Shown here one piece after another: positions 10,112-15,267 of a DNA stretch of 64,000 nt. The stretch lies in sequence record OR637327.1. One strand, given 5' to 3'. Each line of letters opens with the position of its first letter. Within the stretch, counting starts at the first letter, position 1. The position numbers and the translations under genes are program-made. A model generated the notes under the pieces. That model made no database searches. It was given only the letters and a program-made list of their open reading frames with translations, and was not told the DNA's origin. Source of the stretch: Klebsiella phage iPHaGe-KPN-11i.

Positions 10112-10858
10112 TTATGGCAGACTTGCAAACGGTGAACCGCGTCCGTTGACAACATCAAAAGATTCGATGAATTCATCACCTTCTCTTTCAAATTCTTTGT
10201 CTTCTTCGTACTGTTCAATGTTGATATCAGCCAGACCGTCAAGATTTCGAATCGGTTCGAGATCCAGTTCTGCATCAGGTTCGATATGGATTCCTTCATT
10301 TCGCTGCAATTCAGGAGCCAGTTCTTCACCAGTGTAGATGAATTTCGCCAGGTTGATTTTACGTTGAGGACGATCACCGAACTGATAGAACGGATCGGCT
10401 TCTACCCATGTAACTTCAAAAAGGCTATTATCCATAGGGAAATAAATCAAATCCCCCAGAACAGGAATACCACCATCAGTTTGATGTGCGAACAAACGAG
10501 GATTTATTACCAGCGTCATTTCATCGTTTGAGTTCAAACCAAATTTACTAAAGAAATCTCGTTGCCCTTCATAGTTGGCATACGATTCAATATACGCAGC
10601 AATTTTCCATGACTTCGTAAATTTAGATTCTCGGTCTTCTCCAAGAATCTTATCAATATTCACAAAGTCGCGCCGGACGTAATACATATCAGGCGATTTC
10701 ATCTGGATTGATTCTGCTGTCAATGAATCATGTAGCTGTTGTGTCGGGTTGTATTTGTACCAGTTTACATACGGGTTAGTGACCTGATCCTTTAAGTTAC
10801 GATCAACCCCTTCCCCCGTAGACAACTGAGCGAATAAACTTTCATCCCAGTTTTGCAT
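10112..10858 (-). CDS. gp14: neck protein gp14
   Basis: Position and similarity to T4 gp14 (LFAKL, FPMDNSLFEV.W.E..PF.Q.G). Confidence 0.85.
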   Translation of the reverse strand: MQNWDESLFAQLSTGEGVDRNLKDQVTNPYVNWYKYNPTQQLHDSLTAESIQMKSPDMYYVRRDFVNIDKILGEDRESKFTKSWKIAAYIESYANYEGQRDFFSKFGLNSNDEMTLVINPRLFAHQTDGGIPVLGDLIYFPMDNSLFEVTWVEADPFYQFGDRPQRKINLAKFIYTGEELAPELQRNEGIHIEPDAELDLEPIRNLDGLADINIEQYEEDKEFEREGDEFIESFDVVNGRGSPFASLP

Positions 10859-10866
10859 TATTCCCC

Positions 10867-11790
10867 CTACACCATAATGATCGGTACAGCGTCAGACATC
10901 GAAATCAGTTCATCGCGCAGACTTTGCAGTTTGGTTTCCGCTTCCTGGATCAGTCGCGTACCATCAGGAGCAACACCGCCAGGCAATTGCATCCCCTGGA
11001 ATTTAGCCAGAATTTGTCCGTTGATCTCTTTCACCAATGCGGTAGAGTAGTCTTTTACCCAACGGTTGTTATATGCAGACGTTCCGCCTGTAACAGTTGA
11101 ACCCTGTCCCGCTCGTACACCGCCTACAACCGCGTTATACGGGTTTTCGTAGATGTCGGCTATGGATTGGTCTTCCACTGCGTTAGAACCCGCTGTAGCG
11201 TATCCTGCGACGCTTCCTACGGAGCTAGGAACATCAACGAAGGAACGAACCATCGCTTCAAGAACGAGAATATCGCCTTTGTTAACCTGCCCCCATGCGC
11301 AGAACTGACCAGTATCATCGTTAAACCAGTAATCAGGCAGTGGAGCCAACAGGTCTTGCATTGAGCGTTGATAGGACATCATCTGGGTAAAGTATCCCAT
11401 ATCCGCACCGTATGCGTTCATACCGTACACGCTTGATGCACATCGACCGCCCAGAGAACCACCAGTAAGCCCCATTAGGAAATCGGTAAACCACGGATAA
11501 ACCGCTGTCCCGTCCATTGTGGTCAATGAACCCATGTTTGTGCGCAATACCTTCGTGATCGCGAAGATGTGCTCTTTGCTCAAGTCGAACACGTTGCGCG
11601 GGTTATCGTCGCCCAGAGTCAGAATAATATAACTCTTGTTCGTGCCGTTGTAATGATATTCCGCGTATAAGTCTAAAGCGCGTTGAATACAGTCATAAAT
11701 CTGGTCTTGAGTGACTTCAATTTTGATGATTGGTGCGCCCAGACGACGAAGAATTTCATCTTTCAATTGTTCTGGATTATTCGTAATCAT
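10867..11790 (-). CDS. gp13: neck protein gp13
   Basis: ILRRLGAPIIK.E.T.DQIYDCIQRAL..Y.EYH..G, ..YPWFTDFL.G, NNRWVKDY.TAL.KE.NGQILA are near-identical motifs to T4 gp13. Confidence 0.92.
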   Translation of the reverse strand: MITNNPEQLKDEILRRLGAPIIKIEVTQDQIYDCIQRALDLYAEYHYNGTNKSYIILTLGDDNPRNVFDLSKEHIFAITKVLRTNMGSLTTMDGTAVYPWFTDFLMGLTGGSLGGRCASSVYGMNAYGADMGYFTQMMSYQRSMQDLLAPLPDYWFNDDTGQFCAWGQVNKGDILVLEAMVRSFVDVPSSVGSVAGYATAGSNAVEDQSIADIYENPYNAVVGGVRAGQGSTVTGGTSAYNNRWVKDYSTALVKEINGQILAKFQGMQLPGGVAPDGTRLIQEAETKLQSLRDELISMSDAVPIIMV

Positions 11791-11794
11791 ATGA

Positions 11795-11818
11795 TCCTCA
11801 AAAGGGGCTTTCGCCCCT
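11795..11818 (-). terminator. intrinsic terminator after wac (GGGGCGAAAGCCCC + T-run on minus strand)
   Basis: The plus strand reads AAAAGGGGCTTTCGCCCCTTG, which gives a hairpin followed by UUUU on the minus-strand transcript. Confidence 0.6.
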
Positions 11819-11826
11819 TGTTAAAA

Positions 11827-13866
11827 TTATGCTACCGTTACAGTTACAGTCGCGGTTGCCGAATCGTTGGTACTGTTCATCGCGTCAGTTACGGTTACAT
11901 AGTAATCACCCGCATCTGCGCTGGTTGCAGCAGACTTGACGATCGAAGAACCAGTTTGACCAGTTAATACAGAACCGTCTTTATGCCATACGTAGGTGTA
12001 CGGAGTTTTACCGCCGCTAAACACAACTTCCAGAGTCAGAGGTTCGCCCTCAACGACAGAAACATCACTCAAGTTTGTATCAAACTTAGGAACCGGATAT
12101 ACAGTAATGTCAAGTTCATCAGAAGTAATCACGGTATTTTCAGCGTCAGTTACGACAACTTTATATACAGCGGAATCACTTGAGGTGATATTCTGGATCA
12201 TTACACTTTGCGAATCAGTCCCGATATTTTCAGTTCCTTTCTTCCACTGATACACGTAAGGCAGTTTACCACCCGTAACGGCAACAGATAAAGAAATATT
12301 ATCACCCTCGATATAATCGGTACGACCGACAAGGTTTTGAGTAAATGACAACGGAATTTTCTTCGCTTCGTATTTGGCATCTGCTTCAACTTCCGTAATA
12401 TACGGAACCAGAGAATCAGCAACATCCTGGTGAGAGGCTTTATTCTGTTCCAGATCATTCAGACGTTGTTCAACATTACCACCACCGCCAGCAGCTTCGA
12501 GAGCAGCAACGCGAGTAGTTAGATCAGCGATCAGCTTATAGATACCTGTTTCAGAACCAGCAGTTTTCACACCGATTGCTGTTTTGTTGTCGCGAGCCGT
12601 TTTCTGAATACCATCTTTGAGGAATGGATCAGAACTGGTTGCGTCACCATAAACAGCTTTACCCATTGCGATGTTCGCAGCAACCAAACCACTTGAAGTA
12701 TTACCCACTATTGAGGTAAGATCAACAATAACTTGGTGATCGTCACGTTGGGTGTTTTCTACGTTCAAAAGACGGCCTTTAATGCTGGTAGGCTGGGAGT
12801 CAGTACCAATATCGGTCATCACCTGTGCCATTTCACCGCGCAGACCATCATCACTTGTTTCACCAACGATCATATTCAGATCGCTAATGCTACGTTTCAT
12901 TGTGCTGATATCGTAACGGATACTACCCGGAACCTGCGAGTTACCAACAGCGCTTTCCAGAAGGATTACGCGAGGCAGAACACCAACAACCGGATCATTC
13001 ATCTGGGTTTGCAGAGTAACGATGTTCGTTTCTGCCGCTTTCATGCGTGAATCAATACTACCTGATCCGCCTGTACCCGTGCGCCCGATATACGTGTTGA
13101 TGTTTGACAGTTCGGTGTTGATGCCAGTGATATTGTCACCGATATGGTTCAATCGAACATAAACCGATTCAAACGTTGCTAAATGCTTCGGCCCCATTTC
13201 GTTACGCAGATCCGTAACTTCATCGGTCAAGTGACCTACATCTGAGTTTACCCAGTCATCTTCCAGCTTAGTAATACGTGCTTCGTGGATGGATACCGCC
13301 TGAGCGTTCGCCATTACCTTGTATTTCACGCCGGAGCCAGTAGAGGACGGATCAACATCACCATCTTCGTTGAAGCCTGGATACGCCCCCAGTTCACCTT
13401 TCAGGAAAATGATATCTTTTCGAATCGTGCGATGTTTAGGATCGGTTGTTGCATCCCATACACCAATTTCCTTTTCGATGTCCTGAATTTTCAGAGTGTG
13501 GCTTGCTGTAGTTGCCTGTACAGAAGACATATCTACTTTCAGCACGTCAGCATCAGCGACAACTTTATCCAGTTTGTCGATCACGCTTTCATCAGAGATT
13601 GCCGCGAGGTTTTCGGTAATGAGGTTAACCTGATCGATAACTTCGTTGATTTTTGATGTCTGGGTAGTTGTGTTTGCTTCTAATTGTACCGCGTTCTTTT
13701 GAACCAGAACACTGCATCTGTTTAAAGAACCCTCGTTAGTGGTTTTGGTTTTAGCACCATCGAGAGTTTCGCCGTTAACAATCCAATTGATCTGGGTTTG
13801 TGTGGTGTCCGTAGGGACACCATCAACAAACGGGATCTTTGGTAACGGGTTAAGTTTTGAAATCAT
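11827..13866 (-). CDS. wac: fibritin (whisker/collar, wac) with two C-terminal Ig-like domains
   Basis: The N-terminus NPLPKIPFVDGVPTD...INWIVNGETL matches T4 wac (LNDLPFVDGPP...ISWIKNGEEIL). A long segmented coiled coil follows. The C-terminus carries tandem ~85-aa Ig-like repeats (GGKLPYVYQWKKG.. and GGKTPYTYVWHKDG..) in place of the T4 foldon. Confidence 0.85.
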   Translation of the reverse strand: MISKLNPLPKIPFVDGVPTDTTQTQINWIVNGETLDGAKTKTTNEGSLNRCSVLVQKNAVQLEANTTTQTSKINEVIDQVNLITENLAAISDESVIDKLDKVVADADVLKVDMSSVQATTASHTLKIQDIEKEIGVWDATTDPKHRTIRKDIIFLKGELGAYPGFNEDGDVDPSSTGSGVKYKVMANAQAVSIHEARITKLEDDWVNSDVGHLTDEVTDLRNEMGPKHLATFESVYVRLNHIGDNITGINTELSNINTYIGRTGTGGSGSIDSRMKAAETNIVTLQTQMNDPVVGVLPRVILLESAVGNSQVPGSIRYDISTMKRSISDLNMIVGETSDDGLRGEMAQVMTDIGTDSQPTSIKGRLLNVENTQRDDHQVIVDLTSIVGNTSSGLVAANIAMGKAVYGDATSSDPFLKDGIQKTARDNKTAIGVKTAGSETGIYKLIADLTTRVAALEAAGGGGNVEQRLNDLEQNKASHQDVADSLVPYITEVEADAKYEAKKIPLSFTQNLVGRTDYIEGDNISLSVAVTGGKLPYVYQWKKGTENIGTDSQSVMIQNITSSDSAVYKVVVTDAENTVITSDELDITVYPVPKFDTNLSDVSVVEGEPLTLEVVFSGGKTPYTYVWHKDGSVLTGQTGSSIVKSAATSADAGDYYVTVTDAMNSTNDSATATVTVTVA

Positions 13867-13878
13867 GGATTAACCCCT

Positions 13879-15267
13879 TTATCGTACTCGAATTACATAG
13901 TTGACTGCAACGTTTTTCATTCGCGTTTCGTTTCCGCCAGTTGCCATAGCTTTAGTGTATGCTGGATTCAGTTGCATAATTAACTGGTCGTTCTTTTCTG
14001 AATTTTTCAATTCGTATATTGCTTCGGATGACGGAAGATTACCACCGTTACGATAGATCATCTGTAACTGGTGTTCGTGGGATTTAAACATATCATCCTG
14101 GTAAGTACCGAAACCACGTCCAGGATCTAATCCACGTCCGGCATCGAAACCGCGAGCAGCAACACCGCGCATATCTGGGAGGTTGAAAATATCCCCAGCA
14201 CCGCCGTATGTATACCCGATGCGGGAAAACAGAACAGGATATGTGTTGCGGTTCATTGCGCGTCCGTTACAGATAAAAATATTTCCATAGTCGGAGTTAA
14301 ATGCAGATAGCATCATACAACCGATCGGAATATTTACTTCAACGTCGCTTTGTGTCTGGTATTTATTGTCAGCAACAATAGAACCCTGATACAGCGCACC
14401 GCCAGTGATAGCACTGTTTCTGTTGCTTGGAACTACGTTAGCGCCAGCAGACAACGCGGTATTCGCTAATCCGGTGTTGACATCTGTTGATAATTTAACC
14501 AAACCAAATGCAGAGCCAGAACCCTTCACAGCAGCAAGTTTTTGCGGGGTGATTGCTTTTGTGTTATCAGTACCCGCGTTTACTTCCTCCTGTGTAGCGA
14601 TACGGAGTAAGCCTAAATCGGTTTCTGTTGCAGTCAGACGAATAAACGTGTATGGTGAAATTGCGAAACCGTCGCGGATAGTACCTGCGCGGACTTCGGC
14701 AACTGTTGCCAACTGTACCAAACCGAAATTGCTTTCAGTTGCGTTTGACTGTACCGGAACCATAGCAGCAATTGCTTGCTTCACTTTAAGCGGAGTCATT
14801 GCGGTCGTGTCATCAGTACCAGACGTTGCCTGTGCAGTGGTTGACAGTTTTGCAGAACCCCAGACGTTTTCTTTTGACTGACGGGTGTTAAACACATAGT
14901 TCAATGAACGCGGTGTTAATGAAACCAGATCGTTCGTTACGGTTATTGATTCTGCATCAGTTGCGTAACGGGTGTAACCCCATACGGTTTGTGATGCATG
15001 AGGGTTTTGCAGACGGTATTCCAGCAGAGCCGGAGTTACGATCGTCTGTGTGTCTGTACCTGCATCAATCATTTCCTGTGTAGCAATAGCAGCAATACCA
15101 CGCACACCAGGCGCGGCATTAGGCAAGCCAACATCAGTACGCGCCCATGATCCGATAGATGCAAGCGCTTGCTGAACATTCGTGTACGTGCTAGGCCATT
15201 GCGTACCAGCAGGATCAAATGTCACGTAAACGGATTTATCGCTTACGTGGTTAATTGTGTTGTTCAT
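13879..15267 (-). CDS. gp12: short tail fibre gp12
   Basis: HVSDKSVYVTFDP..AATESNFGLVQLATVAEVRAGT..DGFAISPYTF...PLFSRIGYTYGG...NLPDMRG..RG..NVAVNYVIRV is collinear with T4 gp12. Confidence 0.9.
   Translation of the reverse strand: MNNTINHVSDKSVYVTFDPAGTQWPSTYTNVQQALASIGSWARTDVGLPNAAPGVRGIAAIATQEMIDAGTDTQTIVTPALLEYRLQNPHASQTVWGYTRYATDAESITVTNDLVSLTPRSLNYVFNTRQSKENVWGSAKLSTTAQATSGTDDTTAMTPLKVKQAIAAMVPVQSNATESNFGLVQLATVAEVRAGTIRDGFAISPYTFIRLTATETDLGLLRIATQEEVNAGTDNTKAITPQKLAAVKGSGSAFGLVKLSTDVNTGLANTALSAGANVVPSNRNSAITGGALYQGSIVADNKYQTQSDVEVNIPIGCMMLSAFNSDYGNIFICNGRAMNRNTYPVLFSRIGYTYGGAGDIFNLPDMRGVAARGFDAGRGLDPGRGFGTYQDDMFKSHEHQLQMIYRNGGNLPSSEAIYELKNSEKNDQLIMQLNPAYTKAMATGGNETRMKNVAVNYVIRVR

Follow-up and report, generated by a model that had tools for sequence, protein, structure and literature searches.

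How does a T4-like neck whisker keep its three chains together when its foldon is no longer complete, and what do the immunoglobulin-like (Ig-like) domains at its end do? This question is raised by the wac gene (fibritin, neck whisker) of Klebsiella phage iPHaGe-KPN-11i. The gene was analysed in a stretch of 64,000 nucleotides from sequence record OR637327.1, hereafter the window, in which it occupies 11827..13866 on the minus strand as an ATG-to-stop open reading frame of 679 codons plus the stop. We found that the C-terminus of the protein consists of two tandem I-set Ig-like domains, a result far beyond chance, and that only a part resembling the arm and first strand of the T4 foldon is kept. 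Taken together, we read the gene product as an RB43-type trimeric whisker in which the segment between shaft and Ig domains, hereafter the junction, would serve as a clamp, and the two-Ig arms would be exchangeable, weakly adhesive cassettes. We give this joint reading a probability of roughly 0.7. The Ig-tipped architecture of RB43-type fibritin has already been published, and identical genes are already annotated in GenBank. What is added here is incremental: a two-Ig deletion variant, a series of zero to five modules, the lack of relation between these modules and the phage's own Hoc, and a junction that would combine half a foldon with beta-layer features.

Two I-set domains at the C-terminus

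A first-pass annotation, made from the sequence alone, had proposed that the C-terminal ~170 amino acids (aa) are two tandem Ig-like modules of ~85 aa each, both with the signature G-G-K-x-P-Y-x-Y-x-W. Pfam, structure prediction and Foldseek bear this out. The Ig part covers aa 504-679, that is 176 aa, and is preceded by the 44-aa junction. The motif GGK.PY.Y.W occurs exactly twice in the protein with a spacing of 86 aa, as GGKLPYVYQW at aa 532 in Ig-like domain 1 (aa 504-590; 12097..12357, minus strand) and as GGKTPYTYVW at aa 618 in Ig-like domain 2 (aa 591-679; 11830..12096, minus strand). The two domains share ~40% identity (tblastn, E 7e-10 and 2e-10). Pfam matched two stretches with each of three families, Ig_3 (56.4 bits, cut-off 30), I-set (40.6 bits, cut-off 23.7) and Ig_2 (39.6 bits, cut-off 27), all of them above the cut-offs. 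An AlphaFold2 (AF2) model of aa 420-679, made as a monomer from an alignment of 30 family sequences, revealed two beta-sandwiches with a predicted local distance difference test score (pLDDT) of 94-98 over aa 504-679, and no foldon-like structure. Searched with Foldseek against the PDB, the model matched tandem I-set pairs at E ~1e-11, namely those of titin I67-I69, Robo2, DCC, contactins, MuSK and RB49 Hoc (3shs). Against BFVD, it matched a viral protein of 676 aa (60% identity in the aligned part) as well as decoration and tail proteins of phages.

As to the type of these domains, the first-pass annotation had left the choice between Hoc-type and Big_2-type. The former is right in that the domains belong to the Ig subtype of Hoc-like decoration proteins and are of the I-set/Ig_3 type. 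Big_2 was rejected, because Pfam gave no Big_2 match in the wac protein at E up to 1.

An RB43-type variant of T4 fibritin

We identify the window gene as T4 fibritin (gpwac) in its RB43-type variant, and place the phage among the Pseudotevenvirus-like phages of Klebsiella, Cronobacter or Enterobacter. This identity is based on synteny, Pfam, PHROG, a 100% identical GenBank record and the likeness to RB43 wac. In a phmmer search against PDB sequences, aa 9-460 aligned colinearly with residues 7-458 of T4 fibritin (E 4e-48), and the alignment ended at the Gly that opens the T4 foldon. Pfam Fibritin_C was matched from aa 374 (69.8 bits, cut-off 21) and the fibritin family PHROG 1056 with E 2e-179. 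RB43 wac is 81% identical to the window protein over aa 1-669. At the DNA level, the gene has 100% nucleotide identity with a 'fibritin neck whisker' of Klebsiella phage phi1_146002 and 99.5% identity with Cronobacter phage GAP161, and with a large group of phages of Citrobacter, Cronobacter and Enterobacter it shares ~91.6% identity; one member of this group, Citrobacter phage Margaery, is classed in Pseudotevenvirus. Furthermore, wac stands between a gene for a gp12-like short tail fibre on one side and gp13/gp14 on the other, a region with a Pfam T4_neck-protein match (E 9e-87), and the gene order gp12-wac-gp13-gp14 is that of T4.

The view that the protein has a T4-like N-terminal region and a segmented coiled coil is thus confirmed. 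The N-terminal neck-attachment domain (aa 1-60; 13687..13866, minus strand) is the best-conserved region in the family, with 73-98% identity, and aa 9-72 match the structures of T4 fibritin N-terminal fragments (1ox3, E 4e-8; 2ibl, E 6e-8). The segmented coiled-coil shaft follows at aa 61-459 (12490..13686, minus strand), colinear with T4 fibritin. The N-terminal domain of T4 fibritin binds the neck (gp13/gp14), not gp12. The earlier description of this region as gp12/neck-binding therefore stands for the neck and falls for gp12.

Compared with T4 fibritin (2bsg, 3j2o, 1aa0), the window protein shares the N-terminal domain, the colinear coiled coil and the gp12-wac-gp13 synteny. T4 fibritin has a full foldon, whereas the window protein has only Y-I-x-E...D-x-K-Y-x-x-K-K, which resembles the arm and strand 1, plus 219 extra residues. 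The likeness to RB43 gpwac (Pseudotevenvirus) is closer and extends over the gene, its position, the T4-like N-domain and shaft, the Ig domains instead of a foldon and the junction motif; the two differ in that RB43 gpwac has three Ig domains in 762 aa and the window protein two in 679 aa, by a 252-nt in-frame indel. KP15-type (Slopekvirus) relatives have one Ig domain against two in the window. RB43-type fibritins in which one or three Ig-like domains replace the foldon were described by Letarov & Krisch 2013 (PMC3797505), and the same architecture was described earlier by Letarov et al. 2005 (J Bacteriol 187:1055), as far as PMC3797505 relates it. According to PMC3797505, which cites Letarov et al. 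2005 on this point, all distant fibritins carry alien sequences in place of the C-terminal domain.

A foldon-arm-like motif and a conserved junction

The first-pass annotation also stated that the foldon is lacking. This is correct for the complete foldon, but not for the arm/strand-1-like motif YITEVEADAKYEAKK, which is kept. The arm plus beta-hairpin that makes up the complete foldon of T4/JS98-type fibritin is absent from the window wac: no foldon hairpin (D-G-x-W-V) was found by regular expression or tblastn in wac or in the rest of the window, and between aa 441 and 498 the AF2 monomer consists of helices only, with no hairpin. BLASTP against the fibritin of Mosigvirus PhAPEC2 ran ungapped through YITEVEADAKYEAKK / YIEDAPSDGKFYVRK, which is the foldon N-terminal arm and first strand, and the Ig linker begins at the position where the hairpin turn would be expected. 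MAFFT placed the T4 foldon arm against YITEVEADAKYEAKK in the same way. Of the foldon, only the arm-like YITEVEADAKYEAKK is kept, and the turn and the Trp strand are missing.

We also considered a cryptic foldon. The Fibritin_C envelope reaches profile position 92 of 93 in the window protein, and the last part of the profile, when T4 is mapped onto it, is the foldon. This candidate was rejected save for the arm-like motif, because the envelopes of relatives stop at profile positions 60-67, the AF2 model has no hairpin and none was found in the window.

The junction comprises the 44 residues aa 460-503 (12358..12489, minus strand), as delimited by family conservation, AF2 and BLASTP to PhAPEC2. 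It begins with a GGGG hinge and an extra coiled-coil segment, VEQRLNDLEQ, and continues as NKAS-HQDVADSLVP-YIT-EVEADAKYEAKK. These 44 aa are conserved across the family and, apart from the short foldon-arm-like motif, have no T4 counterpart. In the AF2 model, the helix breaks at NKAS (475-478) and LVPYIT (486-491). The junctions of distant relatives read LQSKANVSDVYTRTQADNKF or ISTKANNTDVYSKVESDARY and fit the consensus LxxKADKxxVYTKxE (P0047, P0049), which is the tandem beta-layer consensus of Hartmann et al. 2016 (PMC4786415). The same paper lists G-YIP-E of T4 fibritin as a beta-layer, and it reports that beta-layer inserts turned GCN4-N16V trimeric. The P0047 junction matches the trimeric adhesin NadA (4cjd, KKANSADVYTKAEVYTKQESDNRFV) with E 0.005, and also GCN4 fusions including 7o9v (GCN4-OMM_04225). 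The junctions of relatives bear a marginal likeness to the tandem beta-layer module of trimeric alpha/beta coiled coils, known from NadA (4cjd) and the prophage tail-fibre hyaluronidase 2C3F, and the window version is split by 6 aa.

Among other fibritin types, P0232 (589 aa) and P0261 (588 aa) have retained a hairpin like that of the foldon (DDGFHYLRKRGEWVQV in P0232), and a further C-terminal domain of ~120 aa comes after it. Therefore, the foldon hairpin can be internal in other lineages. A search for foldon-bearing fibritins with the T4 C-terminal query gave only 10 matches, which were short or engineered.

A natural series of zero to five Ig modules

We surveyed 120 cluster representatives from a protein search with a hidden Markov model (HMM) built from the two Ig modules of the window. 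Ig modules were present in 118 of them, and their number ranged from zero to five. Seventy-seven representatives of 571-587 aa have one module (KP15, Miro and other Slopekvirus-like phages), nine of 663-679 aa have two (the window, the GAP161 group and Yersinia phage JC221), and 23 of 759-770 aa have three (RB43, Margaery, leE and IME-CF2); the three modules in the 762-aa RB43 Wac were recognised with the same HMM. Four modules were found in eight representatives (851-853 aa) and five in a single one (P0043, 941 aa). One further 440-aa fragment has three Ig modules. The two representatives with no module are P0042 and P0057. P0042 (462 aa) appears truncated at the Gly hinge. P0057 (493 aa) is a complete gene between gp12 and gp13, at L003:3001-4482 on a 31.6-kb contig from Logan SRR31860671, and its stop comes right after the junction motif (...YYTKVESDAKFQPKAV*).

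How did the window come to have two modules? A DNA alignment with Margaery (L002) revealed one clean in-frame indel of 252 nt (84 codons). It is flanked by ACTGT(A/G)AC(T/G)GTA, a microhomology that encodes T-V-T-V, and relative to three-Ig relatives the indel junction in the window reads ACTGTAACTGTA|ACG (T-V-T-V|T) at 11836..11850 on the minus strand. The window gene and Margaery Ig3 end identically, in the last three codons, the stop and the downstream terminator. Clustering of the modules showed orthology groups that are retained or lost independently. The window has groups A+B, Margaery and RB43 have A+B+C, and four-Ig forms have A+B+C+D; the one-Ig protein P0037 has C only, and P0040 has C+D. 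Ig1 and Ig2 of the window are orthologous to those of RB43-like three-Ig proteins, and Ig1 is also orthologous in four-Ig relatives. In all other proteins examined, modules of group B occupy internal positions, and TVA* closes every terminal module. From the indel alignment, the internal position of group B elsewhere and the TVA* ends, the two-Ig state is read as a deletion of Ig3, which would most simply have occurred when neighbouring modules recombined at their G-strand (TVTV) ends.

Selection on the modules was estimated as dN/dS, the ratio of nonsynonymous to synonymous substitution rates, by the Nei-Gojobori method for the window against Margaery and against RB43. The shaft has 0.08 in both comparisons, Ig1 has 0.15 against Margaery and 0.10 against RB43, and Ig2 has 0.11 and 0.19, respectively. 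Values of 0.10-0.19 place the Ig modules under purifying selection, so they are not junk. At larger distances, the tip diverges, or is swapped, much faster than the shaft. Between the window protein and P0034, for example, identity is 81% in the shaft and 45% in the Ig domains.

Relatives of the Ig modules

Among solved structures, the repeats of the Aureispira grappling-hook protein GhpA (9flp, E 5e-40) come closest to the Ig pair. The modules also match 9ncf, an 'Immunoglobulin-like domain protein' (E 2e-28), and 9c2d, a 'Tail protein' (E 9e-21), which are Felixounavirus tail/Ig-like proteins, and phrog_2973 (E 2e-37). Decoration protein pb10 of T5 was matched as well (5lxk, E 2e-15), and its Ig domain is 47% identical to Ig2; this likeness suggests module exchange between unrelated phages. 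An exhaustive representative search with the full wac protein gave 7538 matches at E<=1e-10, mostly giant bacterial Ig-repeat proteins, and no more than three additional types of fibritin. The wac-type Ig module recurs 10-40 times in thousands of giant surface proteins of bacteria.

Hoc-like decoration proteins (T4/RB49 Hoc 3shs; T5 pb10 5lxk; 9c2d, 9ncf) are like wac in their Ig subtype and in their exposure on the virion. They are, however, monomeric and anchored to the capsid by a capsid-binding domain, whereas the wac Ig domains form the end of a neck fibre that would be trimeric. The number of Ig domains in the Felixounavirus Hoc-like decoration protein is also variable, from 1 to 4 (PMC12609058).

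The first-pass annotation had suggested a comparison with Hoc of the same phage. The Hoc-like gene is located just beyond the window (PP889458 16719-17222; L001:10720-11223) and encodes a protein of 167 aa, in which a capsid-binding domain (ESRNG motif) lies at the N-terminal end and is followed by ~85 residues. Pfam gave no match for this protein, and the comparison with the wac Ig modules gave no similarity (E 0.18). Within the window, no further Ig copy was found. We therefore rejected the idea that the wac Ig domains were copied from the phage's own Hoc. As the Hoc-like protein is unrelated to wac Ig, the I-set modules of the wac subtype sit on the whiskers and not on Hoc.

How the whisker may be built and what its Ig domains may do

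We propose that the whisker would be a parallel trimer, as in T4, and that its three chains would be held together through the junction. Besides the Gly hinge and the additional coiled-coil segment, KAS and YIT would take part as two motifs of beta-layer type, with YIT as the counterpart of the beta-layer that opens the T4 foldon. The junction could thus act as a trimer-specific C-terminal clamp instead of a full foldon. Past K503, each chain would bear its own two-domain Ig arm, giving six Ig domains per whisker tip. That the junction is an alpha/beta coiled-coil clamp which specifies the trimer, with the Ig arms as appendages, is held on sequence grounds with low to moderate confidence. The natural zero-Ig variant, which ends after the junction, supports the clamp.

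The Ig modules may be exchangeable cassettes, zero to five in the family, of which the window would have lost the third via recombination at TVTV ends. Their role may be weak, multivalent and reversible adhesion to surface polysaccharide, such as host capsule, lipopolysaccharide or mucus glycans. Such adhesion would add to the binding by tail fibres and would not replace it, as proposed for Hoc and RB43 fibritin; an accessory-adhesin role was already put forward for RB43-type fibritin by Letarov & Krisch 2013 (PMC3797505). By analogy with Hoc, a weak multivalent accessory adhesin seems to us the most likely role of the Ig domains, although we hold it with some reserve. It is based on an exposed position (from the T4 analogy), an Ig subtype shared with decoration proteins, purifying selection, and fast turnover with variable copy number. 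The combined picture is slightly more tentative. It would have a conserved half-foldon and a tandem beta-layer clamp keep the trimer in register, while the Ig modules would be free swappable cassettes (zero to five per chain, recombining at TVTV ends) that form a variable multivalent adhesin bouquet on each whisker.

Several points weigh against our reading. The junction has a pLDDT of only 52-75, in a monomer model. Its likeness to beta-layers is marginal, with E 0.005 for the junction of the relative P0047, 0.2 for the family profile and 0.005-0.5 for the PDB matches, and the motif is split in the window, with six extra residues between its two parts (KAS-HQDV-ADSLVP-YIT). The zero-Ig gene P0057 is known from a single assembled contig of one sequencing run. 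According to PMC3797505, non-T4 fibritins need expanded C-terminal domain sequences for folding and trimerisation, and these could include the Ig modules. Finally, in T4 it is the fibritin tip that touches the long tail fibres (PMC12609058), a task that might fall to the Ig domains here.

The last point leads to the main rival explanation, that the Ig domains dock the phage's own long tail fibres. On this view they would take over from the T4 foldon region a surface that assists fibre attachment and keeps the fibres retracted, and host or mucus glycans would play no part. The contacts of T4 wac trimers with long tail fibres are made in both the collar and the whisker conformations (PMC12609058), and the RB43 record labels wac 'facilitate long tail fiber attach'. 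Still, zero to five modules in close relatives, with different ones retained in each lineage, would be hard to accommodate in a specific interface. The purifying selection on the Ig modules would fit docking, and so would the observation that the fibritin C-terminal type follows the core-genome phylogeny, unlike adhesins, as expected for the partner of a virion protein (PMC3797505); the much faster divergence of the tip than of the shaft would not. The same Ig subtype also occurs on capsid decoration proteins that have no fibre partner. We consider fibre docking unlikely, though it survives better than the other alternatives.

The Ig domains could also be the folding and trimerisation nucleus in place of the foldon, folding first and setting the register of the three chains. 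This would agree with the expanded C-terminal domain that non-T4 fibritins need for folding and trimerisation and with the nucleation of folding by the T4 C-terminal domain (Letarov & Krisch, PMC3797505), but tandem I-set domains are typically monomeric beads, as in the fold matches titin, Robo and Hoc. Moreover, a complete zero-Ig gene stands in a normal gene context, module identity is interchangeable among relatives, and a conserved motif of the trimer type is found immediately upstream of the Ig part. We consider an Ig nucleus quite improbable. Equally improbable is that the modules are functionally neutral and do no more than make the whisker tip longer or more stable, as passengers or spacers. 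Their highly variable copy number and the zero-Ig variant might suggest this, as might the variable Ig number of Hoc-like proteins, for which no function has been established (PMC12609058), but clear purifying selection and the retention of modules in 118 of the 120 representatives speak against it.

Neighbouring features

Upstream of wac, the gp12-like short tail fibre of 462 aa is encoded at 13879..15267 (Pfam Collar, PHROG 910). Downstream of wac, gp13 lies at 10867..11790, in the neck-protein region, and gp14 at 10112..10858. The wac stop and the gp13 start are 36 nt apart, and in this gap we observed a strong hairpin, AAGGGGC-GAAA-GCCCCTTTT (11800..11819, minus strand), followed by a GAGG ribosome-binding site. 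The hairpin is intrinsic-terminator-like, with a fold of -14.8 kcal/mol and z -3.6, and the Margaery record annotates a terminator at the same site. It was spotted by eye and by folding. A consensus scan for sigma-70 promoters and terminators around wac gave nothing above chance, and it missed this hairpin because the T-run has only four T.

Outside the window, near the Hoc-like gene, PP889458 16119-16691 (L001:10120-10692) is labelled 'collagen like minor tail'. Its product matches Pfam HAD_SAK_2 (E 2e-29) and has a DnaJ-type zinc-ribbon motif, and the label is probably a GenBank misannotation. Just past the left end of the window, the annotation has a homing endonuclease gene that separates the two genes labelled 'major head protein' (PP889458 9837-10472; L001:3838-4473).

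Significance

As a discovery, this case carries little weight, since the architecture was described in 2005 and 2013 and the gene is annotated. For annotators, it shows that the Ig domains of wac and those of Hoc are unrelated in these phages. The natural series of zero to five Ig modules on one scaffold is a handy system for testing phage Ig domains as accessory adhesins, and the junction motif could account for the trimerisation of whiskers in which the foldon is not complete. If this is true, the half-foldon/beta-layer clamp would be a minimal foldon-independent trimerisation tag, together with a natural copy-number series for probing the function of phage Ig domains.

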